Shown one piece after another: positions 17,289 through 33,967 of a stretch of DNA of 46,881 bases. Made by a program: the position numbers and the translations under genes. How positions within the stretch are numbered: position 1 is the first letter of the stretch; each line of letters starts with the position of its first letter. The stretch is from a virus (lineage: Duplodnaviria > Heunggongvirae > Uroviricota > Caudoviricetes), in IMG/VR virus record IMGVR_UViG_3300018065_000012. One strand, given 5' to 3'. Below the pieces are notes generated by a model. It worked only from the letters and a program-made list of their open reading frames with translations, was not told the origin of the DNA and made no database searches.

Positions 17289-17304
17289 GTCAAAGCAAGA
17301 AAGG

Positions 17305-17338
17305 CTTGGGAAGGGCTTGAAATATAGCCCTTCCCAAG
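17305..17338 (+). promoter_or_regulatory. perfect 12-bp hairpin CTTGGGAAGGGC-(10 nt)-GCCCTTCCCAAG immediately after the fibre gene stop
   Basis: Perfect inverted repeat 17 nt downstream of TAA 17286-17288. No U-tract, so more likely a stability/processing element or a weak terminator. Confidence 0.45.
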
Positions 17339-17344
17339 TACAAT

Positions 17345-17653
17345 ATGAACGCAGACGATAAGTACAATTTCAAATTCTGCATTATTGGTCAAGAGACAAT
17401 AAGGCAAAAGTTGATGACAATTCGTTTTCTTCGATTGTCACAACAGCCAACGCTCGCGATTGATTCATTTAATGCGGAGAAAAAAGGCATCATTGAAACA
17501 GCCAAATTTGCTATCGTGTTCAGGCCGGAGAAAAAGAACGATCCAATAAAGGAAGTTGGCGCTCTGATTGATAATGGATGGCCTGAATTTCGTATTTTGG
17601 TTGAGGGTGATGACTTCCCGATGTGCGGTATACCATCGGACAATATTGCATGA
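17345..17653 (+). CDS. hypothetical protein (102 aa)
   Basis: ORF-track frame; weak RBS; function unknown. Confidence 0.4.
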   Translation: MNADDKYNFKFCIIGQETIRQKLMTIRFLRLSQQPTLAIDSFNAEKKGIIETAKFAIVFRPEKKNDPIKEVGALIDNGWPEFRILVEGDDFPMCGIPSDNIA

Positions 17654-17665
17654 AATGGAGATGAA

Positions 17666-18796
17666 ATGGGATTGTTTACAGCAGCACATTTCGTTCAAGT
17701 TGCGCCGTGTCGCAGTGGTTTGTACGAAACGACGCGTGAAATTTGCAAAGGACAAATTGAATTTCTGAATTGGGATGCCCGCATGGTAGACGTGACGGGC
17801 ATTTGCACGGCTGGCGGGAAACCGACAAAGAAAAAGGAAGAAAGAGGAGTTCCGCTTGCAAGCGTAAAATGGGCAAAAAAGAAAGCAGATGTTTTCTTTT
17901 TGCACACGGGAATTCCGACGAAAATAGAAGGTTCAAGACCAGCGCTTTACTTTGCTCATGGGATGCCGGAGTATACGTTTTATTCGCAAGTCATGCGCGA
18001 AGTTTCCCCGAGTGAAGCCATTCGGGAACAAAAGCTTAAAAACGCGAATCCGTTCTTTGGCAGTTGGGGTTTAATAGTTCAGATAGCCAAGAAAGACTGG
18101 ATGAAAGGTGCGGTCACCTTATGGCGAAGACATAAGCCATATTGGGAGCCATACTTTGAAAATGTCATTCTTGGAAATCACTTTTGTGATTTGGAACTGT
18201 TTAAGCCGGAAGGAGACAAGGCCGACTATGTTCAGCGGCCAGCAGAAAACGGCGGCTTGAATATTACTTTTGCCGATCATTGGCGTTACACGGCTTTCAA
18301 AGACCCGTTTCAAATATTGCATGGTGCCTATAAGTTTTGCAAGGAGACAAATTCGCGGATTCATTTATATGCCGTGCCCAAGGAAGAAGTAAGGGATATT
18401 CGTCACCCTTGGAATTCGATTATACACGGCGTCAGCGATGAACTGAAAGATACGATTGGTGGTTTTTATGCAGTCCACGCAGATATTGCTTCAGTTCATC
18501 GGGCAGCTGATTTATTGATTACGCCTTCTTGTGATGATACAAGAACAGTGATTGAAGCTTCGGCCTGTGGTTGTCCGGTCCTTGCAAGACATGGGACGGA
18601 AGCGGCAATTTTTCATTGTCGTATGGAAGACCCTGATGAGCTTTACAAGGCATTGAAAGACGTTTACTACAAGTTACAAGACGAGAAAAAGAAAAAGAGT
18701 ATAAAAGAACGATCAAGAGAATTGGTAACGCGCAACAACTTTTCATTGAAAGCTTGTGTGGAGAAGATCGAAACGGGGCTGGCTGAAGCCCTTTAA
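17666..18796 (+). CDS. GT-B fold glycosyltransferase (GT4-like)
   Basis: C-terminal domain with EASACGCPVLA (cf. the EAMACGxPVIA motif of GT1/GT4 glycosyltransferases); 376 aa. Confidence 0.55.
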   Translation: MGLFTAAHFVQVAPCRSGLYETTREICKGQIEFLNWDARMVDVTGICTAGGKPTKKKEERGVPLASVKWAKKKADVFFLHTGIPTKIEGSRPALYFAHGMPEYTFYSQVMREVSPSEAIREQKLKNANPFFGSWGLIVQIAKKDWMKGAVTLWRRHKPYWEPYFENVILGNHFCDLELFKPEGDKADYVQRPAENGGLNITFADHWRYTAFKDPFQILHGAYKFCKETNSRIHLYAVPKEEVRDIRHPWNSIIHGVSDELKDTIGGFYAVHADIASVHRAADLLITPSCDDTRTVIEASACGCPVLARHGTEAAIFHCRMEDPDELYKALKDVYYKLQDEKKKKSIKERSRELVTRNNFSLKACVEKIETGLAEAL

Positions 18797-18838
18797 TAAA
18801 GTGTCGCAGTGCGGTGAGCTTTTGATAATATCAAGAGC

Positions 18839-18872
18839 GAAACATTGTCTCAGTTGTAGCCAACAATGTTTC
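18839..18872 (+). promoter_or_regulatory. 10-bp perfect hairpin GAAACATTGT-(14 nt)-ACAATGTTTC in the intergenic region
   Basis: Inverted repeat between the GT gene and the next structural gene. Confidence 0.35.
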
Positions 18873-18990
18873 TTGCCGCAGGGAGAAATTGGAGAGAGAA
18901 GTAATTTGCACTTTTTCTTTCTTTCCCTGCCCGTGGTCCGCACTCCCATTTTATTCTGCATTAGTTGAAAATGCTCGAAGGAGATGAAAA

Positions 18991-21873
18991 ATGGGATTGA
19001 CTGGTTCTCAAAGGGCAGAGAAGGTTGGATTCACTTACACACCTACAAATTACATTCCTGTTCCAGTTTACAGTGAGTCGACAAACAAGGTATCTGCCCA
19101 TCTAAAAGGCATCGACAATGCCCTTGTCGGCAGTGGCGCTGTAAGTGCAGTCAACGTACCAACAGATACGAGTAATTTTGATCAAATACTTTCTTCTGCC
19201 GATACGAATGTTCAGTTGGCATTGGAAACGCTTGATAGTCTTGGTGGATATTTTCCTTTGAGTGCAAGTGCTGTTGGCGTTGTAACGGATAATTTCGACG
19301 ACATTCTTTCCTCTGCCGACGACACGGTTCAAAAAGCATTTGACACACTTGACGACCACGACCACTATTCTGAAGGGTTGTTTGAGGACCGTCCAGCACC
19401 AAGCACTGAAGGCCGTTGGTACAATGCAACAGACAACAGGCAGCTTTTCATCGACAACGGAACACAATGGAGAGAAGTTGCTGCTTTGGGGACGTCTGCT
19501 CCAACGATTTATGAACGTCACGTAGCGACGGCAGCGCAGACGGTCTTTGATCTTTCAAGCCATTACGATGTAGGCGTCAACGCGCTTCAGGTCTATGTAA
19601 ACGGTGAAAGACAAACTGTTGGCGCAAGCAATGATTATGTTGAAACGGATTCTGATACAATCACATTCAATGCGGGGTTGAACGCTTCTGATGAAGTAAT
19701 TTTCTTGCAGCACGCCGGTGGTGCCAAATCGATTATTACAGCGAGAACAGATTTCACGGCAACAGGTGGACAAACTGAATTCAATCTTTCATTCAGTTAT
19801 CGTCCCGGCTATCAAGACATCCTTGTTTATTCATCGGGTGTTGTTCAAAGAGTTGGTGCCAGCTATGACTATTTGGAAACAGATGAAACAACTGTAACGT
19901 TCAATTCTGGCCGTGCCCTCAATGAGCAAATTGCTATCATAAGGATTGGTTCAAACGATGCTGGTACAGTCGGGTTGTATGACAGACATGTTGCTACAGC
20001 AGGACAAACAGTTTTCAATTTGGCTGGTGCATATCCAACGGGTACAAATGCGTTGTTAGTGTTCAAAAATGGCGCATTGCTTTCGGTCACGGCTGACTAC
20101 ACTGAAACAGATGGCGATACGGTTACGCTTACCGCTCCTGCCAATCTCAGCGATGTTCTGATCTTCCGTATTCCTTATGGAGATACGGAAGTTGGAACAG
20201 GTGGCCCAGCGATCAACGTGACGACGGATACGAGTAATTTTGATCAAATACTTTCTTCTGCTGATACAACTGTTCAAGCGGCATTGGAAACGCTTGACAG
20301 TCTTGGTGGATATTTCCCACTTAGCGCAAGTGCGGTTGGAGTTGCAACAGATGATTTTGATGACTTCATTTTGACTTCTGCCGACGACACGGTTCAAAAA
20401 GCGTTGGATACACTGGATGACCATGACCATTATGTTGAAGGCTTGTTCTCAAATCGCCCCGCTGCTGGTATTGAAGGCCGTTGGTATTACGCTACTGATA
20501 CGGGTATTCTATATGCGGATAATGGAATTGCTTGGAGGGAAGTATCTGCCAACGTTGCCGCCAGTGCTGTGAGCGTCGCTACAAGCGGTTTTGGCGGTTT
20601 CATTCTTGATTCTGACGATGACACAGCTCAAAAAGCTTTCGATACGCTGGACGATCACGATCACTATGTTGAAGGATTATTGGATGATCGTCCTGCTTTT
20701 GGAATTGATGGGCGGTGGTACCGAGCAACTGATACAGGACAACTCTTTGTAGACAATGGTTCCTCTTGGAACGAAGTTGCTGCAATTGGTACTGGCGCTC
20801 CAACGTTATATGAGCGTCACGTTGCGACAGCGGCTCAAACAGTCTTCGATCTTTCGACCAATTATGATACGGGAGTAAACGCACTTCAGGTTTATCGTAA
20901 TGGAAACAGGCAGACTGTAGGGGCCACCAATGATTATGTAGAAACTGATTCCGATACGGTAACTTTTAATGTTGGTTTGGACGCCAGTGATGAAGTAATT
21001 TTCATTCAGTTCTCAGGCGGTGCAAAGACGGTCATTACAGCGCGTGCAGATTTTGCCGCTACCGCTGGACAAACCGTTTTTGATTTGCCGTTTACATATC
21101 GTCCCGGCTACCAAGACATTCAGGTGTATTCTGGTGGCTTAATTCAGCGTCTTGGCGGCAGTTATGATTATCTGGAAACGGATGCTGATACCATCACCTT
21201 CAATGTTGGGCGTGTTCTGAATGAAAACGTCACTGTCTTGAAGATGGGCGGCAATGAAGCTGGCACAGTCGGGTTGTATGAGAAACATGTAGCTACTGCC
21301 GCACAGACAGTTTTCAATTTGACAGGTACTTATCCTGTTGGCACACACTCTCTGCTCGTTTTTCAAGAAGGTGCGTTGCTTACGATTGGCGACGACTATA
21401 CTGAAACGGACGCTGACACGGTAACGTTGACTGTTGGTGCTACTGTTAGCGACGTACTTCTTTTCCGTGTGATGAATGGCGACACGGAACTTTCAGCGCA
21501 CGATATTGACTACCATAGTGATTATCCGACAGGTTTGCATCCGTATGAGGCGAGTACAGCGGGTGTGGGTAGTCCAAACATCTTGTTGGATTCCGAAAGC
21601 GGCTTGACGGTTTCCAATGTCGGAGCAGGAGCGGAAAACTACAACACGTTGCCTTCTGCTGTGGCTGGTTTGAAGTACACATTCATTTGCGAGAATGCCA
21701 ATGGTATTCGGGCAACTGCTGCGGCTGGCGATACGGTGCGTGTTGGCAGCAATGTGAGTGCTGCTGCTGGATACGCAAGGGCTACTACAGTTGGAAATGC
21801 TGTTACGCTTGTTGCTGTAGACTCAACACAATGGATAGCGACTTCTGTTGTCGGTGTATGGACTGTTGTGTAA
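18991..21873 (+). CDS. Large structural protein (960 aa) with an internal duplication of about 400 aa and Ig-like/beta-sandwich-type repeats
   Basis: GAAGGAGA SD. Repeated blocks such as ...YERHVATAAQTVFDLS..GVNALQVYVNGERQTVGASNDYVETDSDTITFN... occur twice (about 19500-20200 and 20800-21450), and the DTSNFDQILSSADT...HDHY motif occurs three times. Confidence 0.6.
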   Translation: MGLTGSQRAEKVGFTYTPTNYIPVPVYSESTNKVSAHLKGIDNALVGSGAVSAVNVPTDTSNFDQILSSADTNVQLALETLDSLGGYFPLSASAVGVVTDNFDDILSSADDTVQKAFDTLDDHDHYSEGLFEDRPAPSTEGRWYNATDNRQLFIDNGTQWREVAALGTSAPTIYERHVATAAQTVFDLSSHYDVGVNALQVYVNGERQTVGASNDYVETDSDTITFNAGLNASDEVIFLQHAGGAKSIITARTDFTATGGQTEFNLSFSYRPGYQDILVYSSGVVQRVGASYDYLETDETTVTFNSGRALNEQIAIIRIGSNDAGTVGLYDRHVATAGQTVFNLAGAYPTGTNALLVFKNGALLSVTADYTETDGDTVTLTAPANLSDVLIFRIPYGDTEVGTGGPAINVTTDTSNFDQILSSADTTVQAALETLDSLGGYFPLSASAVGVATDDFDDFILTSADDTVQKALDTLDDHDHYVEGLFSNRPAAGIEGRWYYATDTGILYADNGIAWREVSANVAASAVSVATSGFGGFILDSDDDTAQKAFDTLDDHDHYVEGLLDDRPAFGIDGRWYRATDTGQLFVDNGSSWNEVAAIGTGAPTLYERHVATAAQTVFDLSTNYDTGVNALQVYRNGNRQTVGATNDYVETDSDTVTFNVGLDASDEVIFIQFSGGAKTVITARADFAATAGQTVFDLPFTYRPGYQDIQVYSGGLIQRLGGSYDYLETDADTITFNVGRVLNENVTVLKMGGNEAGTVGLYEKHVATAAQTVFNLTGTYPVGTHSLLVFQEGALLTIGDDYTETDADTVTLTVGATVSDVLLFRVMNGDTELSAHDIDYHSDYPTGLHPYEASTAGVGSPNILLDSESGLTVSNVGAGAENYNTLPSAVAGLKYTFICENANGIRATAAAGDTVRVGSNVSAAAGYARATTVGNAVTLVAVDSTQWIATSVVGVWTVV

Positions 21874-21885
21874 GGAACTTGACTG

Positions 21886-22650
21886 ATGACAAAGACAGTA
21901 GTTCCAGCGCATAGTATTGATGCGTTGATGAACAAAAAACTGTTGCGGAATCTGGAAATTCATAGCAACGCTGCCGCTGCAATATCCAAAGTTGATATTG
22001 ATTCTGGTATTGTTGCTTCTGAGGATGGCACAACCGTAATGAAAGTCAGCAGTCCTATCACTGTTGACATTGCTGCTTCCGGTGTCAATGGTCTTGACAC
22101 GGGCAGCGAAGCAGTTTCAACGTGGTATTACCTTTATATCATTTACAATCCAACGACTGATACCGAAGCTGGACTATTTTCGATTTCTGCTTCGAGTCCT
22201 ACAATGCCAAGTGGGTATACGAAAAAACGTTTGGTCAGCGCCATTTACAATCAATCTGGTGGTGACTTCTTAACATTCAAACAAGAGAACTACGAGTTTT
22301 ATCTGCTTGGTCGGCAAAGCGTCATATACGGTGGAACTGCTACGGCTTGGACTCCTCTAACAATGAGCAGTTATGTTCCAAGTAATATTTGTCGCACGGC
22401 TAAACTGAATTTGGTTGCTTTTTATGGCAGTACGAATGTTGGTACGGAATGGAGCCAACTTGCATGGAAAACAGGAACGGCTTGGACGCAGATTGATTGG
22501 CGTCGTGGAGTAAGTGGTGATTATATTGTGAATTCGCAAACATTTGATATACCATTGGACACGAAATCACCACCGACAATTTGGTATCGGAATTCAAATT
22601 CGGACTCACATTTTCGAGTATATGTCAACGGATGTAGATTGCAATTGTAG
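21886..22650 (+). CDS. Tandem paralog 1 of 6 (about 255-aa family, function unknown, probably virion-associated)
   Basis: Shared motifs: MTKTVVPAHSI, GLDTGSEAVSTWYYLYIIYNP, SSPTMPSGYTKKRL, PSNICRTAK, DIPLDTKSPPTIWY, C-terminal GCRLxL. Confidence 0.6.
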   Translation: MTKTVVPAHSIDALMNKKLLRNLEIHSNAAAAISKVDIDSGIVASEDGTTVMKVSSPITVDIAASGVNGLDTGSEAVSTWYYLYIIYNPTTDTEAGLFSISASSPTMPSGYTKKRLVSAIYNQSGGDFLTFKQENYEFYLLGRQSVIYGGTATAWTPLTMSSYVPSNICRTAKLNLVAFYGSTNVGTEWSQLAWKTGTAWTQIDWRRGVSGDYIVNSQTFDIPLDTKSPPTIWYRNSNSDSHFRVYVNGCRLQL

Positions 22651-22671
22651 AATCACTAAAGGACTTGACCG

Positions 22672-23439
22672 ATGACAAAGACAACAGTTCCAGCGCACAG
22701 TATGGAAGCGCTGATGAATAAAAAACTGTTGCGGAATCTGGAAATTCATAGCAACGCTGCCGCTGCGATTTCCAAGGTTGACATTGATTCTGGTCTTGTA
22801 GGCAGTGATGATGGAACGACTATAATGGAAGTTCCGAGTACCATTACGGTGGACATTGCGGCTTCAGGGGCTAATGGTCTTGATACAGGTTCAGAAGCGG
22901 TTTCGACTTGGTATTACTTGTACTTGATTTACAATCCAAGCACGGACACTGAGGCTGGATTGTTTTCAGCAAGCGCAAGCAGCCCCACGATGCCAAGTGG
23001 GTATACGAAGAAGCGTTTGATAAGCGCCGTCTATAATCATTCAGGTGGCGATTTTTTGACGTTCAGACAAGATGATTATGAATTTTATCAGCTTGGTTAT
23101 CAAAGTGTTTTAGCGGCTGGAACTGCTACGTCTTGGACTGCTGTTACAATGGGCAATTTTATTCCGAGTAATATTTGTCGCACAGCTAAAATGCTTGGGC
23201 TTGCTATTTACGGTGGTACGGCTGGCGTCAATAGCCGACAAAGCTATATTGCGTGGAAAACGGGAACAATTTGGACAGGTCTTATGTGGCGACGTGGGGC
23301 AAGTGGTGACCTTAATATCAATACGCAAACATTGGATATACCATTGGACACAAAATCACCGCCGACAATTTGGTATTATAACACACACGCAGCTTCAAAT
23401 TTTAATTTGTACGTTGTTGGATGTAGGCTGAACTTGTAA
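22672..23439 (+). CDS. Tandem paralog 2 of 6
   Basis: About 80% identical to paralog 1 by eye. Confidence 0.6.
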   Translation: MTKTTVPAHSMEALMNKKLLRNLEIHSNAAAAISKVDIDSGLVGSDDGTTIMEVPSTITVDIAASGANGLDTGSEAVSTWYYLYLIYNPSTDTEAGLFSASASSPTMPSGYTKKRLISAVYNHSGGDFLTFRQDDYEFYQLGYQSVLAAGTATSWTAVTMGNFIPSNICRTAKMLGLAIYGGTAGVNSRQSYIAWKTGTIWTGLMWRRGASGDLNINTQTLDIPLDTKSPPTIWYYNTHAASNFNLYVVGCRLNL

Positions 23440-23464
23440 AGAGAAATCTGGAAGAGGACTTGTA

Positions 23465-24229
23465 ATGACAAAGACAGTGCTTCCAGCGCATAGCATTGAA
23501 GTGGCGCTGAACGAAAAACTGTTGAAGGATTTGGAAATCGAATCCAATTCCTCAAACCCGACGTATCAGGTGGACATCAATTCTGGTATCGTTAGTAGTG
23601 AAGATGGAACTGTTGTGGTGGAGGTAACTTCACCAATTACAGTAGACATTACTGCTTCAGGAGTTAATGGACTCGATACGGGTTCAGAGGCAGTTTCAAC
23701 ATGGTATTATCTCTATATCATTTACAACTTGACAAGCGACACGGTTGCAGGACTTTTTTCGACAAGCGCAAGTTCGCCAACAATGCCGAGTGGGTACACA
23801 AAAAAGCGTTTGGTCAGTGCTATCTATAATCAATCTGGTGGTGATTTTTTGACCTTCAGACAAGATGATAACGAGTTTTATCTGCTTGGCTATCAAAGCA
23901 TCTTGTCTGGTGGAAGTGCTACCTCTTGGACTGCTGTAACGATGGGCAATTATGTTCCGAGCAATATTTGTCGCACGGTTAAACTCTCTTTGGTTTCCAC
24001 TTGGGGGGGGGCTGATGGCGGGTCAAAGGCTGCTTACCTTGGATGGAAAACAGGAACGATTTGGATGTCGTCTCGCTATCGTTACAGTTCCGGTGGTGAC
24101 TTGTATCGTAACTCGCATACATTTGATTTGCCATTAGACACAAAATCGCCACCGACGCTTTGGTATTATCAATCGTCATCAGTGTCAAGCCTCGCTTTGC
24201 TTGTTAATGGATGCAGACTGGATATATAA
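23465..24229 (+). CDS. Tandem paralog 3 of 6
   Basis: Same motif set; stop TAA overlaps the next start (TAATG). Confidence 0.6.
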   Translation: MTKTVLPAHSIEVALNEKLLKDLEIESNSSNPTYQVDINSGIVSSEDGTVVVEVTSPITVDITASGVNGLDTGSEAVSTWYYLYIIYNLTSDTVAGLFSTSASSPTMPSGYTKKRLVSAIYNQSGGDFLTFRQDDNEFYLLGYQSILSGGSATSWTAVTMGNYVPSNICRTVKLSLVSTWGGADGGSKAAYLGWKTGTIWMSSRYRYSSGGDLYRNSHTFDLPLDTKSPPTLWYYQSSSVSSLALLVNGCRLDI

Positions 24230-24987
24230 TGCCTGAAACTGAAATCAAAGCTGGACGCATTGACCCGTTGTTGACCAAGACGATGATACAGAGTCTTGAG
24301 ATACGTTGCAATTTTACGGACTTCGTTTACATTGACGCTGGCGTTGTCGGTTCAGATGACGGTGAGGAAATTATGGAAGTCACGGCCACTCTTTCTGTGG
24401 ATATTGACACGAACGGAGCGAACGGGCTGGACACAGGTTCACCAGCAGACAATACGTGGTATTATGTCTACGTCATAAGCAATTACACAACGGTTGCGGG
24501 TTTGCTTTCGACAAGTGCTTCTGCTCCGACAATGCCAAGTGGATATGTGAAGAAAAAAGCAGTAAGCAAATTGCGTCGTGGTACTGGCGCTTTTTACTTT
24601 GTAAGACAGTATAATGATTACGTGAAATATGCAAATAGGCTCAATGTCCTTACGAATGGAAGTGCGACATCTCGAACTCAAATCAGTCTGTCGAATTATG
24701 TTCCAGATGAAGCATACAGTGCCGACATCAATTGGAGATTCGAGCCTGATGGTACAAACATTCAAGCAAGCAGAGTGGGTTATGTTGAAGCCTTGAGTGG
24801 TTCGGCTCATCAGTGGTGTTACATGGGAATTGATGAGACGGCAAGCACAGTTTATCATTATCGCCAGTTTTGTCATATTGAATTACCGATGTATTATACC
24901 AGCCCAACAAGACTTTATTACTATCAAAGTGGTAGCGATGCTGATACTTCGCTTTGGGTTCAGGGATACAGATTGAAAGGGCTTTAG
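24229..24987 (+). CDS. Tandem paralog 4 of 6 (divergent)
   Basis: Retains GLDTGS...TWYY(V/L)Y...SAPTMPSGY(V/T)KK and C-terminal QGYRLKGL. The ORF track starts at 24211; the ATG at 24229 (TAATG junction) is preferred. Confidence 0.55.
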   Translation: MPETEIKAGRIDPLLTKTMIQSLEIRCNFTDFVYIDAGVVGSDDGEEIMEVTATLSVDIDTNGANGLDTGSPADNTWYYVYVISNYTTVAGLLSTSASAPTMPSGYVKKKAVSKLRRGTGAFYFVRQYNDYVKYANRLNVLTNGSATSRTQISLSNYVPDEAYSADINWRFEPDGTNIQASRVGYVEALSGSAHQWCYMGIDETASTVYHYRQFCHIELPMYYTSPTRLYYYQSGSDADTSLWVQGYRLKGL

Positions 24988-24991
24988 AGCA

Positions 24992-25744
24992 ATGGCTGAA
25001 ACAGTCGTACTTACAGAACGCATTCAGTCTGCATTGCTGAAGAAGGTAAATGGTCTTCGTGTCAGAGGAACAAGCGATACGGTTATAGCTATTGATTCGG
25101 GCGTTGTTGGTAGTGACGATGGTGACGTATGTATGGAAGTCACGTCCACAATTTCAGTGGATATTACGAATTCAGGTGCTAATGGATTGGATACGGGTGC
25201 GGCTGCGGCAAACACGTGGTATTACCTATTTTTGATTTATAATCCAACGACAGATACGGTTGCTGGATTGCTTTCAACGAGTCAAAGTTCGCCAACGATG
25301 CCTTTAGGATATACAAAGAAACGATGGATAAGTGCAGTGCGTCGAACCACTGTGTTGTTTCGATATACACAATGGAATGAAGAAATTTTGTTTGCTTACT
25401 ATATAGGCGTATTGAGCAATGGGAGTTCTACAAGCCGCACTCAAATCAGTTGCTCAAATTATGTTCCTGATGCTCATGCTTCTGCTTTTCTGGTTTTTGC
25501 AAATGCTACTTCATCAAATTTCCACGGAAGAGATATATGTACGATAGAGGAAGAAAGCGGCACCACGTACATGAGATTGTTCGCTGACTATGACGATGTT
25601 CCAACGCCGTTAAGTTTTATGAACCGAAACACTTGTAGCTGTTGGTTTCCAAACTATTATTCAACAGCCCGTGTGTACTATTACGTGAGTCATTCGCAAC
25701 AAGATTTAGACATTCTTATTCAAGGTTTCCAGTTGAGGTTATAA
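24992..25744 (+). CDS. Tandem paralog 5 of 6 (divergent)
   Basis: GANGLDTGAAAANTWYYLFLIYNPTTDT...SSPTMPLGYTKKR, C-terminal QGFQLRL. Confidence 0.55.
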   Translation: MAETVVLTERIQSALLKKVNGLRVRGTSDTVIAIDSGVVGSDDGDVCMEVTSTISVDITNSGANGLDTGAAAANTWYYLFLIYNPTTDTVAGLLSTSQSSPTMPLGYTKKRWISAVRRTTVLFRYTQWNEEILFAYYIGVLSNGSSTSRTQISCSNYVPDAHASAFLVFANATSSNFHGRDICTIEEESGTTYMRLFADYDDVPTPLSFMNRNTCSCWFPNYYSTARVYYYVSHSQQDLDILIQGFQLRL

Positions 25745-26499
25745 TGGCAGAGTTGGCCGTTGACATCAAGCGAATCAAGCAACTTCTGACAAAGAAGAAG
25801 TTGGACAATCTTGGAATCCAGTACAACAGTGCCAATGTTGTTCGGATTACAGATGGCGTTGTTGGAACTGATGATGGTGATGCTATCATGGAAGTCGGTT
25901 CTAACATCGACGTGGATATTTCAACGACTGGAGCAAACGCACTGGATACGGGTACGGTCAGCAATGATACTTGGTATTATCTCTTTCTCATTTTGAACCC
26001 GACGAATGGAACTGTTGCTGGATTGTTTTCATTGAGTGATACTGCCCCTACAATGCCTTCAGGATATACGAAGAAGCGACTTGTTAGTGTTCTTCGATAT
26101 TTCACAGCATCGTTTTCAAATTTCAGGCAATACAATTTTAGGGTGTACTATCCTCAAAATTATACCATCCTTTCTGGTGGGGGAAGCACGAGTCGGGTTC
26201 AACTAAACATAAGCAATTATGCGCCGAATGACTATACTCATTCTGCTCGACTTTTATTTATGGCGAACTGGAATAATGCTTTTGGAAACAGTGTAGTTTA
26301 TCTCGAAGCATTAAGTGGAAGCACCTATCATTACACAAGGGCTGGACTTTTTTCTGGTTCGTGGTGGTATAGATTCAGACAGACAAACGAAGCGGATGTA
26401 GGAATGATGTATGACAATCCCGTGCGTGTTTACTATTACACGGGCGATGCACAATGCCGATGCTCGATTTATGTCAAGGGCTACACGTTGAGATTATAA
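25744..26499 (+). CDS. Tandem paralog 6 of 6 (divergent)
   Basis: Starts at ATG 25744 (TAATG junction; the ORF-track frame opens at 25642). GANALDTGTVSNDTWYYLFLILNPTNGT...APTMPSGYTKKRL, C-terminal KGYTLRL. Confidence 0.55.
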   Translation: MAELAVDIKRIKQLLTKKKLDNLGIQYNSANVVRITDGVVGTDDGDAIMEVGSNIDVDISTTGANALDTGTVSNDTWYYLFLILNPTNGTVAGLFSLSDTAPTMPSGYTKKRLVSVLRYFTASFSNFRQYNFRVYYPQNYTILSGGGSTSRVQLNISNYAPNDYTHSARLLFMANWNNAFGNSVVYLEALSGSTYHYTRAGLFSGSWWYRFRQTNEADVGMMYDNPVRVYYYTGDAQCRCSIYVKGYTLRL

Positions 26500-26536
26500 C
26501 GTTTAGTAGAAGATACTCGAAAAGGAGAGAATAACA

Positions 26537-26752
26537 ATGGCACAGTGGTATGCACGGTACAATCAACTCGACAGTGACAAGGTGGAAGAAGCGGGATTTG
26601 TCGAGCAGTCGGAGCGTGATCGTTGGAGTGCTATGTCGGGCATGTCGGCTTGTGGTGGTTTCGATGATGAAATTCCGAACGACTTGATGGACATTGACGG
26701 CAACCCGAACTATTACTACAACACAGGCACGGGCGAAATTGTTCACCTGTAA
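26537..26752 (+). CDS. small acidic hypothetical protein (71 aa)
   Basis: AAAGGAGAG SD then ATG 26537. Confidence 0.5.
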   Translation: MAQWYARYNQLDSDKVEEAGFVEQSERDRWSAMSGMSACGGFDDEIPNDLMDIDGNPNYYYNTGTGEIVHL

Positions 26753-26819
26753 GTGTTGTGGGTTCTGAAAGGTTCTTGTCTGAAAGTCTATTCTTACGGC
26801 TGAGAAGTATGGAGAAGCA

Positions 26820-28055
26820 ATGCCGCATCTTTTGACTCAAGCCCAACAGAAGGAACAGGTGGCAGACCTTTCCTTGTATGTTGACCCTTCTGCATCGACC
26901 ATGACGGGGACAAATACTTCTGCTGTTACCAAGAAGTTGATTGACAGTGGCGGGGGTTTTTCGTCTTTGAAACCCCGTCAAGTAGTCGTCAATACCACTG
27001 ACCATACTGCTACAATTATTGATTACGTAGAAGATGACACGACACTCGTTTTGAAGAATCACATCTTTACCGCGACTTCAAAAGGCTATTCTATCGACAA
27101 CAATGCAGGAACTTCGGGTGACAAATTTAAGTATCCTCAATCAGCAATGGAAGCAGTACCAGAGACAATTGGCTTCTATCTTCATGTGTATCTTGCCGAT
27201 GGGACGTATAGCGAAATCGGAACAAGTGACATAGTGCTTGGTCGTGCAACAGTTTCAGATGCGTTTCTTTACATCAACAAAAAGATGGCGGCTGGTGGAC
27301 GTATTATAATCGAAGGCAACACGACGACTCCAGCCAACGTGCATTTTAACGGAACAACTCCATCTGCTGCTGCTGGTGTTTTAATTCAGAATGCTCAGAA
27401 AGTAGAAGTTGGAGGGTTGAAGGTATCCAACTGTACCTATGGGATTACTGCTGAAGAAAATTCATCTTTCAGGCTTTATGATGTTATTGCGACTGATTGT
27501 ACTTATGGAATTTCTTTGTTTGATGATTCGGATGGACAAGGTTGGCGGTTGATTTCTGGTCAAAGTGGGACAGGCAACACTTATGGCGTTTATATGGAGC
27601 GTGGATATTTCTACGTTTCCGATGAATCTGTTGGGTCAAGTTCATCCTCTTTGCGCTACAATGGATACAATATCTATCTAAAGACTTCGAGAATCAAAGT
27701 TATTGGAAATGCTACTGCCAATGTAAATCTTTCGGACTCGACAAATCAAGGCGTCTTTGCTACTGAAGGAAGTTCGCTTGAATTTGACCGCATTACAGTC
27801 GATAGTGCAGGGGCAGCGGGAATAGAGATAACATTTGAGAGCAGTGGAAGTGTAGCCAATTCTACTATCTCAAACAATACGGCTCAAGGAATTTTAGCGT
27901 TTAATAATTCCGTGATATACTCAGATACCAATACGGGTGCTGGAAGCACTTATGGTTTATCTGCTCAGAATGGTTCGGTAATCTCTAAGAATAGTACACA
28001 GCCTACGGGTACTGTAAGCAATGAACAAACGGTAAATGGTGGAGCGATTTACTAA
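26820..28055 (+). CDS. Tandem paralog 1 of 3: putative tailspike/depolymerase-like protein with right-handed beta-helix (pectate-lyase-like) repeats
   Basis: Conserved N-terminus (ADLSLYVD...TMTGTNTS...LKP.QVVVNT.D.TAT(I/V)(I/V)DY) followed by repeated (V/I)xNCTxGIxxxEN / NTYGxxxE beta-helix-like motifs; 411 aa. Confidence 0.55.
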   Translation: MPHLLTQAQQKEQVADLSLYVDPSASTMTGTNTSAVTKKLIDSGGGFSSLKPRQVVVNTTDHTATIIDYVEDDTTLVLKNHIFTATSKGYSIDNNAGTSGDKFKYPQSAMEAVPETIGFYLHVYLADGTYSEIGTSDIVLGRATVSDAFLYINKKMAAGGRIIIEGNTTTPANVHFNGTTPSAAAGVLIQNAQKVEVGGLKVSNCTYGITAEENSSFRLYDVIATDCTYGISLFDDSDGQGWRLISGQSGTGNTYGVYMERGYFYVSDESVGSSSSSLRYNGYNIYLKTSRIKVIGNATANVNLSDSTNQGVFATEGSSLEFDRITVDSAGAAGIEITFESSGSVANSTISNNTAQGILAFNNSVIYSDTNTGAGSTYGLSAQNGSVISKNSTQPTGTVSNEQTVNGGAIY

Positions 28056-28075
28056 ATAGGTGCAGGAGTTAGCGA

Positions 28076-29311
28076 ATGCCCCTTTTGACTCAAAACCAGA
28101 AAAAAGCGCAAGTTGCAGACCTGAGTTTGTATGTTGATAATTCTCAGTCCACAATGACAGGAACGAATACATCCGTTGTTTCCAATAAACTGATTGATTC
28201 GAGTGCAGATTTCTCGACGTTGAAACCGCATCAGGTAGTAGTGAACACAAGCGACCATACAGCGACAATCATTGACTATGTTGAAAACGATACTACAATA
28301 GTTCTGAAAGAGAATATTTTTACGGCGACTCCAAAGGGCTATTCCGTTGACAATCACACAGGTGCTTCAAGCGACAAATTCAAATATCCGCAATCGACAA
28401 TGGAATCTGTTCCTGCAAATATTGACTTTTATCTACACGTCTATATTGCTGACGGGACATACAGTGAGATTTCGGCAAGTGATATAGATACTATTCGTGG
28501 TAGCTTTGGAAAGGCTTTTCTTTTCATCAACAAAAGAATGAACGCTGGTGGGCGTATTGTTGTTGAAGGTAATACGACCACTCCCGCCAATGTTCTTTTC
28601 AATGGTACAACTCCATCGGCTGCTGTTGGTGTTCTTGTTCAAGATACTCAGAAGGTTGAAGTGAAAGGATTGAAAGTAACGAATTGTACGCATGGGATTG
28701 GTGTTGTCGAGAATTCTTTCTTGACTGTTTCCGATACCATTACAAACAGCAACAATAATGGGTTTACGGTCTATATGTACTCGTATGTTTTAGCCTCTCG
28801 GATAATTTCTGGCGAAAGTGGCGTTAAGAACACTTATGGTATATTGATGGAGTCGAGTACCTTCAATATTGACGATTCAGGTTCGGGAGCAAACTCGTCG
28901 TCGTTGCGTTACAACACTGACAACATCAATGCGTATTCTTCGACAGTCGCAGTTACAGGCAATGCTACCGCTAACGTTAATTTGTCCGATTCTACAAATT
29001 GGGGCGTCATTTTAAGAACATGCAATACAGCGATTCTTGACCGTGTTATTATTGACAGTGCGAGTTCTGGTGGGGCAATTCAAGTCAATTACGAAGGCAA
29101 TTTGAGTATCAGCAATTCTGTTATCTCAAACAATTCAACGAGAGGAATTACAGCTTATAGTAATTCCTTCGTATACTCAAGCAACAATACTGGTGCGGGT
29201 CAATCGTATGGTTTGGTTGCTCAACATGGTTCGGTTATTTTGAAGAACGGTACACAACCCACAGGAACAACGTCAAATGAACAAACATCAACAGGTGGAG
29301 CGATTTATTAA
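28076..29311 (+). CDS. Tandem paralog 2 of 3 (beta-helix tailspike-like)
   Basis: Same architecture; AGGAG SD. Confidence 0.55.
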   Translation: MPLLTQNQKKAQVADLSLYVDNSQSTMTGTNTSVVSNKLIDSSADFSTLKPHQVVVNTSDHTATIIDYVENDTTIVLKENIFTATPKGYSVDNHTGASSDKFKYPQSTMESVPANIDFYLHVYIADGTYSEISASDIDTIRGSFGKAFLFINKRMNAGGRIVVEGNTTTPANVLFNGTTPSAAVGVLVQDTQKVEVKGLKVTNCTHGIGVVENSFLTVSDTITNSNNNGFTVYMYSYVLASRIISGESGVKNTYGILMESSTFNIDDSGSGANSSSLRYNTDNINAYSSTVAVTGNATANVNLSDSTNWGVILRTCNTAILDRVIIDSASSGGAIQVNYEGNLSISNSVISNNSTRGITAYSNSFVYSSNNTGAGQSYGLVAQHGSVILKNGTQPTGTTSNEQTSTGGAIY

Positions 29312-29330
29312 GAAGGTGTAGGAGTCAGAA

Positions 29331-30569
29331 ATGCAGCATCTTTTAGTCAGAGCGCAACAGAAGGAAAAAGTCACAAGCCTTGACCTTTACGTTGATGCTT
29401 CTCAAACAACGACGACAGGAACCAACACATCTGTTGTTAGTGGAAAGCTGGTTGATTCCACCGCAGATTTTCGGTCTTTGAAACCGCATCAAGTGGTTGT
29501 CAACACAACTGATGGTACGGCTACGGTTGTCGACTATGCGGAAAACAGAACAACGTTGGTTTTGAAGAACCACATTTTCACAGCAACAAGCAAAGCATAT
29601 AGTATTGATGACCATACAGGTTCTTCAAGCGACAAATTCAAGTATCCTCAATCAGCTTTAGAAGCGATGCCTTCAACAATTGGTATTATTTCTCGTGTCT
29701 ATATTGCTGACGGTACATATAATGTGATGGGAACAACTGATGTAATTTGTAATCGTGGCGATGTTACAAAAGCTATCCTTTACGTCAACAAAAGTTTTAC
29801 TGCTGGTGGTCGTATAGACATTATAGGCAATGTATCAACTCCGGCGAATGTTGCTTTTAATGGTACAACTCCTTCTTCGAATGCTGGTGTATTCGTTCAA
29901 GGCAGTCAGAAAATAGAAGTTGAAGGAATCAAGGTAACGAATTGTGTGCATGGGATTACTGCTCAAGAAAAATCATCGGTAGAGGTTTTCGATACGATTA
30001 CAAATAGCAACACTTATGGGTTGTCTGTTTTTTCTCAATCGGTTATGGATTGTTTTAGGGTAATTTCTGGCGAGAGTGGTGCGGGAAATTCTTATGGCGC
30101 ATACCTCGAAGACAGCAATTGTTACATTGCAGATTCAGCTTCAGGAGCAAATTCGTCTTCGCTTCGTTATAATACGACAAACAATATCTATGCGGTGTTT
30201 TCAAGATTGAGGGCGTTGGGCAATGTTACTGCCAATGTGAACTTGTCCAATGCTACGGGATGGGGAGTAATTGCAAGCAGAGGCAGCACGGTAGATTTTG
30301 ACTATGTAACGATTGACAGTTCGGGTGCAGGGGGTTTTCAGGCTACATATGAGAGCAATGCCAGTTTAAGGGATTCCGTTGTTTCAAATAATACCACTTG
30401 GGGCATTTCAGCCGACCTTAATTCGTATGTGAACTCCCGTGATATGAGTGGTGCTGGAAATGATTATGGTTTGGTTTCTGAACTTGGCTCCGTTGTTCAG
30501 AAAGTCGGTACACAGCCCACAGGAGTATCAGGAAACGAATTGACAGCTACGGGCGGTACGATTATCTAA
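29331..30569 (+). CDS. Tandem paralog 3 of 3 (beta-helix tailspike-like)
   Basis: Same architecture; AGGAG SD. Confidence 0.55.
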   Translation: MQHLLVRAQQKEKVTSLDLYVDASQTTTTGTNTSVVSGKLVDSTADFRSLKPHQVVVNTTDGTATVVDYAENRTTLVLKNHIFTATSKAYSIDDHTGSSSDKFKYPQSALEAMPSTIGIISRVYIADGTYNVMGTTDVICNRGDVTKAILYVNKSFTAGGRIDIIGNVSTPANVAFNGTTPSSNAGVFVQGSQKIEVEGIKVTNCVHGITAQEKSSVEVFDTITNSNTYGLSVFSQSVMDCFRVISGESGAGNSYGAYLEDSNCYIADSASGANSSSLRYNTTNNIYAVFSRLRALGNVTANVNLSNATGWGVIASRGSTVDFDYVTIDSSGAGGFQATYESNASLRDSVVSNNTTWGISADLNSYVNSRDMSGAGNDYGLVSELGSVVQKVGTQPTGVSGNELTATGGTII

Positions 30570-30578
30570 GGAGAGAGT

Positions 30579-30872
30579 GTGGGGAAATTTATTCGCAAAA
30601 AAGCAGATGATGTTCTTATTACTCAGTTCCTTGGGACGTTGGATAATGAAGGGACGATGTTTGCCGATGGGTACTTGCAGGAATCAGGTGGTGGCAATAT
30701 GTTGCTTTCGAGTTTTCCAGCCAGTGCGACATGGAATGCAACGCAAGAAATCATTGACATTGGGGATACGAGCTACATTGACAATAATGGCGGTTGGGAT
30801 GATGGGAAATTCATTTACGACGGTTCATGGAGTCTGAATCCCAGTTACGTTCCTGAACCAGAAGATGAATAA
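30579..30872 (+). CDS. hypothetical protein (97 aa, GTG start)
   Basis: AAGGAGAGAG SD immediately upstream; Gly/Asp-rich. Confidence 0.45.
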   Translation: MGKFIRKKADDVLITQFLGTLDNEGTMFADGYLQESGGGNMLLSSFPASATWNATQEIIDIGDTSYIDNNGGWDDGKFIYDGSWSLNPSYVPEPEDE

Positions 30873-30877
30873 GATGA

Positions 30878-31063
30878 ATGCAAGTGATAAAGGCGATAAG
30901 AAAAAGAAAAATTTGCGCACAATGTTTGAAGATTCTTAATCCTCATTCCATACAATATTTTGTGGAGAAAGGATGCATCTGCGACGGGTGTTACAAACTG
31001 AATAAGTGGAAAGAAGAAAACCCAACGTCTTTAATACTTCCCTATTGCGGAAGGAGAATATGA
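30878..31063 (+). CDS. small Cys-rich (zinc-ribbon-like) protein (61 aa)
   Basis: CAQC...CICDGC...C pattern. The 3' end contains the GGAAGGAG RBS of the next gene. Confidence 0.4.
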   Translation: MQVIKAIRKRKICAQCLKILNPHSIQYFVEKGCICDGCYKLNKWKEENPTSLILPYCGRRI

Positions 31064-32521
31064 ATGAGCAGTAGAACACAACAGCGTGAAAAAAAGCGAA
31101 GGGAAAAACGGCAAAGGAAAAAAGAGAAAGATAGAGTTCAACAAACTGTTTCCCCAATGCCTCCAGAACAAAGAATAAGGCGACTGCCATACATTGTTCT
31201 CAAGTTGCTTACAGGCGCTAACATTGCTGAAAACTACAAGCTGAATAAAGATGCAGTTGCTATCATTTGGGACAACGATACTGATCATATCAGTAGTGAA
31301 GATTTCAAGATTGCTCAGAAAATAGCTGACGAACTTTTCAAGGAGCAAGTAAAAGAAAAAAGCTTGATGCCTACTATCAATACGCTTCCAGTTGGAATGA
31401 TGCTCCATAGGCTTGCTACGCAAAAAATCGAGCGTATGGTGCGGAACGAAACAGAAGGCAAAAAGAAAATCCTGTTTATCAAAGACAGAAGCGGATGTGG
31501 CTACTGGAGAATGTTAGTTCCTTCGCGTTACATGGATGCAGAAAACCTGTATATCGACATCACTGAATCGGAATTGGTCTTTGACTTTCTTTTGGAATAC
31601 GATACAATCGTCATTCAGCGTCTTTGCAATTGGCGTGAATATTACATCATTGAAAGACTGAAGCGGCACGGCAAGCGTATTGTTTACGACATTGATGATG
31701 ATATTTTTGACGTGCCTGTGGATAATCCCGCTGCTCGCTACGTGAAAAAAGATCAACACAAAGCGGCTTACGGAATTATGCGGCTTTGTGATGCGGTGAC
31801 GACAACCAGTGAGATTTTGAAAGAGCGTTTGAAGTGCCCTGAAACAACGGTTGTTATTCCAAACGCGATTGATCTTGAAGACGGTTACCCCGCGAAGTAT
31901 CGTCAAAGTGAAGACGGTATCAAACGTATTGTTTGGATGGGCGGTGGAAGTCATAGCAAGGATTGGCTTGAATGTTTTGAAGCTGTGGACAAGATTCTTC
32001 AAGAGCGCGAAGATGTTCGGCTTGTAATTTACGGGGATATACCACGGGCCTTGAGAGCAGCCCTTGCTACTGATGATAAACCATGGTTTACGAAAAGAAT
32101 TGAATTTGTACCGTTTCAAGCAGTTGAGACATATGTGGAATTGACAAAGGAAACAACGGCTGATTGCGCATTGGCTCCGTTATCCAATGAAAGTTTCAAC
32201 GCCGCAAAGAGTAATATCAAATGGTTGGAATACACGGCAATGGGGGTTCCAACTGTAGCCAGCAATGTAAGCCCGTACAAAGAACATATTGACAGCGGCA
32301 GAAACGGTGTCTTGGTTTCAAACACGGATGAATGGTATCGGGCAATTACAGCGTTTCTGGATGACCCAGAACTTTGTGCTAATGTTGTTGATGAAGCAGT
32401 GAAATCAGTTGACGAGCGTTTTGACGTAAAGAAAATTGTGCATGATTGGGAAGAAGTAATTTTGGGCCATGAGATGTATTCAGAAGAAAATCAACCACAG
32501 CTTGTAAACATCGAGACATGA
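31064..32521 (+). CDS. GT-B fold glycosyltransferase with a highly basic N-terminus
   Basis: C-terminal SNIKWLEYTAMGVPTVAS...GRNGVLV resembles the GT1/GT4 donor-binding domain. N-terminal KKRREKRQRKKEK. Confidence 0.55.
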   Translation: MSSRTQQREKKRREKRQRKKEKDRVQQTVSPMPPEQRIRRLPYIVLKLLTGANIAENYKLNKDAVAIIWDNDTDHISSEDFKIAQKIADELFKEQVKEKSLMPTINTLPVGMMLHRLATQKIERMVRNETEGKKKILFIKDRSGCGYWRMLVPSRYMDAENLYIDITESELVFDFLLEYDTIVIQRLCNWREYYIIERLKRHGKRIVYDIDDDIFDVPVDNPAARYVKKDQHKAAYGIMRLCDAVTTTSEILKERLKCPETTVVIPNAIDLEDGYPAKYRQSEDGIKRIVWMGGGSHSKDWLECFEAVDKILQEREDVRLVIYGDIPRALRAALATDDKPWFTKRIEFVPFQAVETYVELTKETTADCALAPLSNESFNAAKSNIKWLEYTAMGVPTVASNVSPYKEHIDSGRNGVLVSNTDEWYRAITAFLDDPELCANVVDEAVKSVDERFDVKKIVHDWEEVILGHEMYSEENQPQLVNIET

Positions 32522-32534
32522 AAAGGAGAAAACT

Positions 32535-32633
32535 ATGGTACAGCAAGCAAAAAAATTGATCACGAAATACAAAAAGTCACTCTCGCTAAAACGTGACAGG
32601 ATTGTTAAAAGAAAGCCAAAACCACAGGCATAA
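32535..32633 (+). CDS. tiny basic ORF (32 aa)
   Basis: AAAGGAGAAAACT then ATG. Fills the gap exactly; the stop lies 2 nt before the next ATG. Confidence 0.3.
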   Translation: MVQQAKKLITKYKKSLSLKRDRIVKRKPKPQA

Positions 32634-32635
32634 TT

Positions 32636-33571
32636 ATGACAAAGTATTTGGTTACTGGCGCGGCAGGTTTCATTGGTTCGCACCTTGTCGAAAATCTAAT
32701 CAAGCGTGGAGATAAAGTACGGGGTGTTGACAATTTTGCGACAGGTCGTCTTGAAAACATAAAGTCATTTCTCGATGATTTTGAATTTGTTGAAGGCGAT
32801 TTGAGAGAAGACAAAGTAGTTTCAGAAACAGTCAAAGACGTTGACGTAATCTTTCATGAAGCTGCAATTCCTTCTGTTCCCCGTTCTGTAGCCGACCCTT
32901 GGCTAAGTCACGAATCCAACGTTGATGTCACTTTGAAATTGCTAATGGCTTCGCGGGGGACGGTCAAGCGTTTGATTTATGCAGCGTCGTCTTCGGCCTA
33001 TGGTCAAAATCCACGATTGCCAAAAATTGAGAGTTTTCCAATTGCTCCAATTTCTCCGTATGCTGTAACGAAAGTCGTTGGCGAGTTGTATTGCAAAGTG
33101 TTTACTGAGATTTTTGAAGTTGAGACGATTTCTCTCCGGTATTTCAACGTTTTTGGTCCGCGTCAAAATCCAAAGTCACAGTATGCAGCGGTGATTCCAA
33201 AATTTATCGTTTCCATGTTGAGAGGAGAGCAACCACGTATTTATGGAGACGGTTTGCAATCCCGCGATTTTACATATGTCCAAAACGTCGTTGAAGCAAA
33301 TTTGTTAGCAGCGAAAGCAAAGAAGGCTTCAGGTCAGGTGTATAATATAGCCTGTGGACAACAGATTGATTTACTTACGTTGGTAACGAAAATCAATCAA
33401 CTTCTTGAAACAGAGATTGAACCAATTTTAGACCCGGAAAGAGCAGGCGACGTAAAGCATTCTTTGGCCGCTATTGATAATGCAAGGCGTGGATTGAAGT
33501 TTGAGCCGGTTGTGAGTTTTGATGAAGGTTTGGCAAAAACAGTTGATTGGTTTAAGTGTTGTCCTGAATAG
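32636..33571 (+). CDS. NAD-dependent sugar epimerase/dehydratase (UDP-sugar 4-epimerase-like, extended SDR)
   Basis: YLVTGAAGFIGSHL Rossmann motif, YAVTK (YxxxK), DGLQSRDFTYVQNVV. Confidence 0.75.
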   Translation: MTKYLVTGAAGFIGSHLVENLIKRGDKVRGVDNFATGRLENIKSFLDDFEFVEGDLREDKVVSETVKDVDVIFHEAAIPSVPRSVADPWLSHESNVDVTLKLLMASRGTVKRLIYAASSSAYGQNPRLPKIESFPIAPISPYAVTKVVGELYCKVFTEIFEVETISLRYFNVFGPRQNPKSQYAAVIPKFIVSMLRGEQPRIYGDGLQSRDFTYVQNVVEANLLAAKAKKASGQVYNIACGQQIDLLTLVTKINQLLETEIEPILDPERAGDVKHSLAAIDNARRGLKFEPVVSFDEGLAKTVDWFKCCPE

Positions 33572-33607
33572 TGTTATAAATTTTTGTTAAAAGTTTTAAG
33601 ATTTTCC

Positions 33608-33636
33608 TTGAAAACAAACGTCTAAGGTTGTATAAT
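33608..33636 (+). promoter_or_regulatory. sigma70-like promoter TTGAAA-N17-TATAAT (copy 3)
   Basis: TTGAAA 33608-33613, 17-nt spacer ending GGTTG, TATAAT 33631-33636. Confidence 0.6.
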
Positions 33637-33642
33637 GTATCG

Positions 33643-33847
33643 TTGAACAAAGGTCTTTTTGAAACTGGTGTAAAATGAATTTGGTCATAGCAAGCTCAAA
33701 CCATCCATGTCGATTCCCCGGACGCGGCGATGCCGCCCCAGCACGGGGTTGGTATGCGCCGTATTTCGGGCGTTTCGGGAGCTTGCTATGAGATAGGTAA
33801 CACAAAGTACTCAAGCAAGCCCCGAATGAAAATTCGGGGCTTTTTTA
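33643..33847 (+). ncRNA. candidate structured small RNA (about 200 nt) with its own promoter and terminator
   Basis: 13-bp perfect helix TCATAGCAAGCTC/GAGCTTGCTATGA enclosing GC-rich hairpins (CCCCG...CGGGG, GCGGC-GAT-GCCGC). Ends with a perfect terminator GCCCCGAA-TGAAAA-TTCGGGGC + T6 (33818-33847). A 38-aa ORF is possible but lacks an RBS. Confidence 0.45.
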
Positions 33848-33891: not shown

Positions 33892-33967
33892 GGGGATGTA
33901 GCTCAGTTGGGAGAGCGCTGCGTTCGCAATGCAGAGGTCAGGGGTTCGAATCCCCTCGTCTCCACCA
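33892..33967 (+). tRNA. tRNA-Ala(CGC) with G3-U70
   Basis: Acceptor GGGGATG/CGTCTCC, D GCTC/GAGC, anticodon stem CTGCG/TGCAG loop UUCGCAA, T-arm AGGGG-TTCGAAT-CCCCT, A73, CCA. Confidence 0.75.

Follow-up and report, generated by a model that had tools for sequence, protein, structure and literature searches.

Six tandem genes of an uncultured huge phage probably encode free-standing trimeric receptor-binding proteins

The question raised by this locus is what a tailed phage does with six consecutive related genes, each coding for a protein of 250 to 255 amino acids (aa). The genes lie at 21886-26499 in a 46,881-nucleotide (nt) stretch of DNA, here called the window, from virus record IMGVR_UViG_3300018065_000012 (Caudoviricetes). 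The protein of the first gene is recorded on contigs of up to 338,319 bp, that is, in a huge phage, and a megablast search with positions 18000-31000 found no near match among GenBank phages. Our answer, to which we assign a probability of about 0.7, is that the products of the six genes are receptor-binding proteins (RBPs), trimeric and free-standing, that serve multivalent host recognition. The genes are listed below, with lengths and starts as publicly called on five independently assembled versions of this genome. L numbers denote contigs used for comparison, and shoulder and head are the N-terminal and C-terminal domains described further on.

Copy 1, 21886..22650, + strand: 254 aa; N-terminal helix at residues 8-16, shoulder at about residues 20-128, head at about residues 129-254; member of a fast-turnover clade
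Copy 2, 22672..23439, + strand: 255 aa; shares 74% identity with copy 1; a 21-nt spacer holds its own ribosome-binding site
Copy 3, 23465..24229, + strand: 254 aa; 65-67% identical to copies 1 and 2
Copy 4, 24229..24987, + strand: 252 aa from ATG 24229; TAATG overlap onto copy 3; stable slot; orthologs L008_2 (71%) and L018_1 (72%)
Copy 5, 24992..25744, + strand: 250 aa; stable slot; orthologs L008_3 and L018_2 (74%)
Copy 6, 25744..26499, + strand: 251 aa from ATG 25744; TAATG overlap onto copy 5; stable slot; orthologs L008_4 (81%) and L018_3 (84%)

An earlier note, made from the letters of the window, had described six consecutive paralogous genes here, and this was borne out: all six are intact, on the + strand, and 250-255 aa long. 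A hidden Markov model of the family detects each copy with an E value of 1e-71 to 1e-86, and an end-to-end alignment of the six proteins has 46 invariant columns, which places their paralogy beyond doubt. The graded divergence that the same note had seen fared less well. Copies 1-3, said to be nearly identical, share 65-74% of their amino acids and ~75% of their nucleotides, with near-saturated synonymous divergence. Copies 4-6 do not diverge progressively; there is no gradient, with 42-45% identity to each other and 35-40% to copies 1-3, and because each has a 1:1 ortholog (71-84% identity) in related contigs, they represent three old, separate lineages. A shared core of motifs does exist in relaxed form, as all six copies have (G/A)LDTG.....TWYY, PTMP.GY.KK, and, at the C terminus, G[CYF][RQT]L..[LI], but the other motifs listed are confined to subsets (SSPTMPSGYTKKR to copies 1-3, PSNICRTAK to copies 1-2, and SPPT.WYY to copies 2-3).

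The TAATG overlaps, described as being reused at the junctions, are present at 3/4 and 5/6 and absent from the remaining three of the five. Junctions 1/2 and 2/3 have spacers of 21 and 25 nt with a duplicated AGGA-type ribosome-binding site, and 4/5 is a 4-nt gap. For copies 4 and 6, gene callers choose ATG 24229 and ATG 25744 and pass over the mechanical starts, which would make the open reading frames (ORFs) longer. The six genes are co-oriented and tightly packed, each with a ribosome-binding site or stop/start coupling, and the array is conserved in all five assemblies. The source samples are JGI 3300017991 and 3300018080 and ENA ERZ27256773, ERZ27256791, and ERZ27256796. The tight spacing suggests co-transcription. 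Scans of 17000-33800 gave no clear enrichment of promoter-like sites (41 versus 30.2 ± 5.6 expected) or terminator-like sites (11 versus 14.5 ± 3.7 expected).

Homology ties these proteins to the tips of tail fibres. A tblastn search with copy 1 matched 46 GenBank phage records (E 5e-7 to 2e-11), and five match places span at least 80% of the query. In both records whose annotation was inspected, the matching module is the C-terminal ~215 aa of an annotated tail fibre: a 399-aa fibre adjoining baseplate genes in Yersinia phage YeP1 and gp52, the fibre at the P2 gpH position, in BcepMu. The PHROG tail-fibre family 11518 was also matched (E 4e-6). The similarity to annotated fibre C termini is significant across both domains, which makes the six proteins members of a tail-fibre tip module family. 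The fibres BcepMu gp52, YeP1 QCW23367, and those of Burkholderia phages phiE131 and PE067 are direct homologs (25-39% identity over up to 85% of copy 1), and the first two carry the same two-domain module at the distal fibre end. In these myophage fibres, however, the module is covalently fused to a shaft of 150-550 aa and occurs once per genome, whereas in the array it is free-standing, with ~20 residues before the shoulder, and present six times in tandem. No Pfam model covers the whole module. A profile search of 1.84 billion representative proteins returned 21,343 clusters (50% identity) at E ≤ 1e-3, with 4,811 at E ≤ 1e-30; among the best 150 profile matches the module is mostly C-terminal in longer proteins and is sometimes repeated two to six times per polypeptide.

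The predicted structure has the layout of a small RBP. A full-length AlphaFold2 model of the monomer, built from a 102-sequence alignment (pLDDT 92.1, pTM 0.89), places an N-terminal helix (residues 8-16) ahead of two all-beta domains. The N-terminal domain is a beta-sandwich with a helix; it can be superposed on the shoulders of the phage p2 RBP, the phage 1358 RBP, TssK, and Mtd, and belongs to the same fold. In the p2 and 1358 RBPs and in TssK, the shoulder attaches the trimer to the baseplate, with a loop of the partner inserted between the three shoulders (PMC7291167, PMC6300606), and Mtd is a free trimer attached at the ends of tail fibres (PMC2408619, PMC10743442). For the C-terminal domain, the fibre tip of Bdellovibrio Bd2133 is by far the best PDB match (Foldseek E 1.4e-6), and the family profile also picks the Bd2133 chain by sequence, at a marginal E value of 0.036. 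The modelled domain is of the Bd2133 tip type, with the twisted beta-sandwich of PDB 8OK3. That tip is the trimeric distal beta-sandwich of a "mosaic adhesive trimer" fibre; it trimerises about a three-fold axis, with a binding pocket at the trimer interface, and its authors reported no PDB homologs (PMC10769870). The weaker matches of the C-terminal domain are likewise jelly rolls with a receptor-binding role: the PM2 spike P1, the phage 1358 RBP, TNF-like lectins, and carbohydrate-binding modules. The fold assignment, which the earlier note had named as a check, therefore points to an RBP shoulder joined to a fibre-tip adhesin fold of the Bd2133 type in the model; with an anchor and a head, each paralog has the full anatomy of a small RBP.

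None of the solved relatives is a complete match. The paralogs are close in size to p2 ORF18 (264 aa), but they have no detectable sequence similarity to the lactococcal p2 ORF18 and 1358 RBPs, and their head is Bd2133-type, not p2-type. The lactococcal RBPs belong to small siphophages of Gram-positive bacteria, with the Dit arm as the docking partner in p2, and the paralogs belong to a huge phage. Bd2133 itself (PDB 8OK3 and 8OND; Bdellovibrio bacteriovorus) is a 1031-aa bacterial surface fibre whose tip follows beta-helix domains, without a shoulder domain. TssK of type VI secretion has the same N-terminal shoulder fold and docks its trimer onto loops of a baseplate partner (PMC6300606), but its neck is helical, its head binds the membrane complex, and it is not a host-recognition protein. 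Mtd of Bordetella phage BPP-1 combines a beta-prism at its N terminus with a C-type lectin head, on which a diversity-generating retroelement (DGR) acts; none of these is found in the paralogs.

The relationship to Mtd rests on fold, because direct profile comparison is only marginal: hhalign against BPP-1 Mtd gave an E value of 0.098 and aligned only the TWYY...PSGYTKKR region with Mtd 107-149. The Pfam model of the second Mtd domain, PF21916, matches residues ~50-115 of copies 1, 4, and 6 with 22.3, 18.5, and 17.0 bits, short of the gathering threshold of 24.6; of 102 family members, 77 match it at E < 0.01, the best at 3.3e-6, and none reaches the gathering score.

The divergence among the copies is concentrated in the head. 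Between slots, the shoulders are 53-62% identical and the heads 19-35%; among copies 1-3, the shoulders are 72-87% identical. The overall ratio of nonsynonymous to synonymous divergence (dN/dS) is 0.08-0.22 in every comparison, and all six copies are therefore kept by purifying selection. In the clade of copies 1-3, dN/dS is raised over head residues 169-228, to 0.43-0.60 when the three copies are compared with each other and 0.84-1.05 when they are compared with their L008 ortholog (r1), and the orthologs of copies 4-6 show 0.05-0.2 in sub-regions with estimable dS.

Taken together, the homology to tail-fibre C termini, the shoulder fold, the fibre-tip adhesin fold, and the head-concentrated divergence support the receptor-binding role that the earlier note had offered as one option. 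Each protein would be a complete minimal RBP, with a helix and beta-sandwich shoulder (residues ~1-128) and a beta-sandwich head (~129-254). By analogy with all structurally characterised relatives, each would form a homotrimer, the shoulders of which would dock non-covalently onto a tail-fibre or baseplate partner, while the distal head would bind a ligand on the host surface that is probably a glycan. The combination of a conserved anchor with strongly differing heads may let the virion display several binding specificities at once, by which host recognition would be broadened or secured. Three of these specificities would be long-lived (copies 4-6), and one slot, that of the clade of copies 1-3, would be a fast-evolving, duplicating test bed. 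The proposal builds on what the analysis shows of paralogy, fibre-tip homology, both folds, selection, and gene order across relatives; from the solved relatives we infer trimerisation, the mode of docking, incorporation into the virion, and the type of ligand, and we further infer simultaneous display.

Several points weigh against this proposal, one of which concerns the gene directly upstream of the array:

Fibre shaft gene, 18991..21873, + strand: 960 aa, repeat-rich, with Ig-like repeats and repeated TVQKA.DTLDDHDHY units

This shaft ends in a C-terminal region of its own (~115 aa) that is not a family module, and not at an obvious free end, and we identified neither a partner "hand" loop nor a docking site. 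An interlaced neck between shoulder and head, as in the p2 RBP, was not recognised in the monomer model, in which the domains directly adjoin (strands 131-134 and 137-150). Most family members carry the shoulder inside a long fibre, and the shoulder fold by itself is thus no proof of docking. The sequence link to Mtd and PF21916 is below threshold, as described above, and the evidence on the six proteins comes from their genes and from monomer models.

In another reading, the proteins would decorate the capsid or tail as lectin-like trimers that adhere to surfaces or mucus-like matrices and are dispensable for infection. Decoration fibres are frequent in huge phages, the small beta-sandwich head resembles carbohydrate-binding modules and TNF-like lectins as well, and the failure to identify a docking partner fits this role too. 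But cultured phages carry the homologous sequences in tail fibres at the P2 gpH position, the N-terminal fold is that of a baseplate- or fibre-anchoring shoulder, and the genes lie between fibre-like and tailspike-like genes, not beside capsid genes. Decoration, also suggested in the earlier note, is in our judgment unlikely, and less likely than receptor binding.

The Pfam match to Mtd prompted us to consider whether the genes are Mtd-like targets of a DGR. For the window, this candidate was rejected, given that the C-terminal domain is a Bd2133-type beta-sandwich and not the C-type lectin fold that carries the Mtd variable region. The scans for repeats and for reverse transcriptase covered the 46.9-kb window of the 338-kb genome. 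They found no template/variable repeat pair in the window, all repeats being paralog-to-paralog, and no reverse transcriptase match among the searched ORFs; the unsearched + strand ORFs of at least 100 aa are all under 170 aa and hence too short to encode one. The differences between copies are scattered, largely synonymous, and not adenine-specific, and samples do not vary: the array region is 99.93-100% identical across five assemblies, which shows neither hypervariation nor rearrangement between samples. Switching of tips by an invertible segment (Mu G segment, P1 C segment, or shufflon) was likewise rejected for the window, as all six genes run in one direction, each from a start of its own, and the inverted repeats there are short and imperfect; none of the ORFs searched was recognised as a recombinase. 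We give both mechanisms next to no credence.

Copies 1 and 2 have a mosaic synonymous divergence (pS), with 0.29 over codons 1-45, 0.77 over codons 46-128, and 0.38-0.39 over codons 129-228, the stretch of highest pS (codons 46-128) being the one most conserved in protein. The pattern points either to partial gene conversion in the past or to selection that disfavours extended tracts of identical DNA between tandem copies.

Comparison with relatives shows how the array has evolved. The related 103.5-kb contig L008 carries a homologous shaft followed by four standalone members, and the relative L011/L018 has at least six members. The more distant large contigs L013 and L015/L020 have 5 and 9, including a shaft-fused one in L015/L020. 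Standalone arrays of 4-9 members occur in other large contigs, and a single copy, typically fused to a fibre, is found in 75 of the 84 loci with a match. In a neighbour-joining tree, each of copies 4-6 pairs 1:1 with an ortholog in L008 and one in L018 (71-84% identity), a separate clade unites copies 1-3 with L018_4, L018_5, L011_6, L008_1, and the shaft-fused module of L008, and the L013 and L020 arrays are independent, lineage-specific expansions. Copy number and order vary between relatives. This is a birth-and-death pattern, with copies 4-6 old and stably inherited and a copy 1-3 clade that duplicates and relocates and whose head diverges fastest.

The relocation is visible in the shafts. 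The 960-aa shaft of the window and the 910-aa shaft of L008 (7243-9975) are 48-70% identical up to the motif GDTEL(S/T)AHD..YHSD, after which the L008 protein continues into a linker and a family module and the window protein into an unrelated end of ~115 aa. Fused in L008 and free in the window, the module has moved between free-standing and fused states.

Such movement raises the prospect that the copies are a silent or reserve store of cassettes, acting mainly as recombination donors that replace the shaft tip for host-range switching, with not all of them in virions. The same-clade module fused to the L008 shaft after the conserved junction motif, the varying copy number and order, and the mosaic divergence of copies 1 and 2, which suggests past gene conversion, are all compatible with a store. 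Yet each gene has a start codon of its own, served by a ribosome-binding site or by translational coupling, and encodes a full N-terminal helix and shoulder, with purifying selection over its whole length (dN/dS 0.08-0.22). Copies 4-6 are retained as 1:1 orthologs, the five assemblies (99.93-100% identical) show no rearrangement, and the shaft in the window has no family module that an exchange could replace. A store of this kind thus seems improbable. The earlier suggestion that the array is a recombination substrate has indirect support from the shaft fusion of a same-clade module and from the differences in copy number and order; the near-identical five assemblies, however, give no sign of ongoing switching.

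If the six genes do encode free-standing RBPs, a bolder and rather speculative extension can be entertained. One conserved docking interface on the virion might accept any of the six shoulder-head trimers, possibly including mixed trimers of copies 1-3, so that a single infection would yield virions of mixed specificity as a form of bet-hedging. The module would shift between free and fused states, and three "core" heads would be accompanied by one test-bed slot. We hold this plug-and-play arrangement to be doubtful.

Phages with several RBPs are familiar. CBA120 has four tailspikes and Klebsiella phage PhiK64-1 many depolymerases; their clustered RBPs are displayed together and widen the host range. 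Those RBPs are large beta-helix tailspikes joined by dedicated N-terminal adaptor domains, whereas the present array consists of 250-aa shoulder-head units of one paralogous family. RBP clusters in large phages, shoulder-head RBPs, and the Bd2133 tip fold were each already known, and an array of several RBPs is a fairly ordinary route for a large phage to recognise several receptors. A literature search for jumbo phages with tandem tail-fibre paralogs yielded general cases of multi-fibre phages and nothing on the present family. For an unnamed and very large fibre-tip family of phages (~21,000 clusters at 50% identity), the analysis supplies a probable function and a domain layout, and it links the family to the only solved structure of its head, that of Bdellovibrio Bd2133. 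A small group of huge phages would use the module as free-standing mini RBPs in arrays, with a stable trio and a fast slot. These results do not overturn current understanding, but they should be of use in annotating huge-phage genomes and in predicting or engineering host range.

The surroundings of the array form a fibre module, which also encodes, besides the 960-aa protein, a 957-aa fibre-like protein (coiled-coil, tail-needle-like), three beta-helix paralogs, and a collagen-like fibre protein; the region is the adsorption apparatus of an uncultured huge phage. Its further features are as follows:

Companion ORF, 26537..26752, + strand: 71 aa, acidic; co-occurs with arrays in L008, L011, L013, and L015
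Relatives of the companion ORF (71-73 aa): L008 4124-4339, L011 3452-3667, and L013 7036-7242
Relatives of the companion ORF in L015: 3372-3593, 4711-4932, 6556-6777, and 12770-12991, four copies interleaved with family genes
Three tandem beta-helix paralogs, 26820-28055, 28076-29311, and 29331-30569, + strand: 411, 411, and 412 aa, directly downstream
Collagen-like ORF, 41491-46881, + strand: more than 1,790 aa, running off the window end, with ~77% Gly-X-Y periodicity

The companion ORF is 70% identical to those of L008 and L011 and 35-39% identical to those of L013 and L015, and its protein has the motif W(Y).(R/I)Y...D.V..AGF ... EIPNDL...DG..NY.YNT. It had no Pfam or PHROG match; it may be an assembly chaperone or adaptor. 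The C-terminal 120 aa of the shaft and the neighbouring 102-aa and 97-aa ORFs had no Pfam or PHROG match either. The shaft is internally duplicated, with two blocks of three Ig-like repeats and five DTLDDHDHY...GRWY.ATD units.

The 411-412-aa paralogs are right-handed beta-helix proteins (Pfam Beta_helix, E 4.4e-11 and 4.3e-6; NosD; one weak match to a Chlorovirus glycoprotein repeat). Their N-terminal ~100 codons share 66-71% DNA identity, the paralogs account for direct repeat family D9, and the same gene order is found in L003 and L005. Judging from sequence, they are probably further tailspike-like adsorption proteins of the same module. The N-terminal part of the collagen-like ORF has tail-fibre PHROG matches (E 1e-30), and the high GC content and purine skew at the 3' end of the window are explained by this ORF. 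A strong 13-bp GC-rich hairpin (17305-17338; CTTGGGAAGGGCT...AGCCCTTCCCAAG) lies in the gap between the 957-aa gene and the ORF that follows it. The hairpin is reported on the - strand, where the requirement for a T-run is satisfied, and may be a terminator or a processing site.

The rest of the window is rich in tRNA genes, 47 in two clusters (2585-13244 and 33892-39571), all on the + strand and together covering all 20 amino acids and most anticodons. ORFs among them encode an HNH endonuclease, a GT2 glycosyltransferase, a GDP-mannose-dehydratase-like epimerase, a pyruvoyl arginine decarboxylase, and a dCMP deaminase. The sole tRNA-Cys of the window (35954-36038, + strand) has the shape of a selenocysteine tRNA and scores 60.6 bits with the Rfam tRNA-Sec model (gathering score 47). 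Its acceptor, T, and D stems are of 8, 4, and 6 bp, and it has a long variable arm, the anticodon GCA, discriminator U73, and no encoded CCA. It fits the "selC* tRNA-Cys" class, which was described from anaerobic bacteria such as Deltaproteobacteria, Firmicutes, and Nitrospirae (PMC5389517), and could be a clue to the host or a phage-borne element for non-canonical Cys/Sec decoding.

Three other genes stand out: a caspase-family peptidase C14 (93-1103, + strand, E 3.5e-32), the pyruvoyl-dependent arginine decarboxylase (11687-12289, + strand), and, in L008, a deoxyhypusine-synthase-like gene (19849-20756). They are an unusual auxiliary set tied to polyamine or hypusine metabolism.

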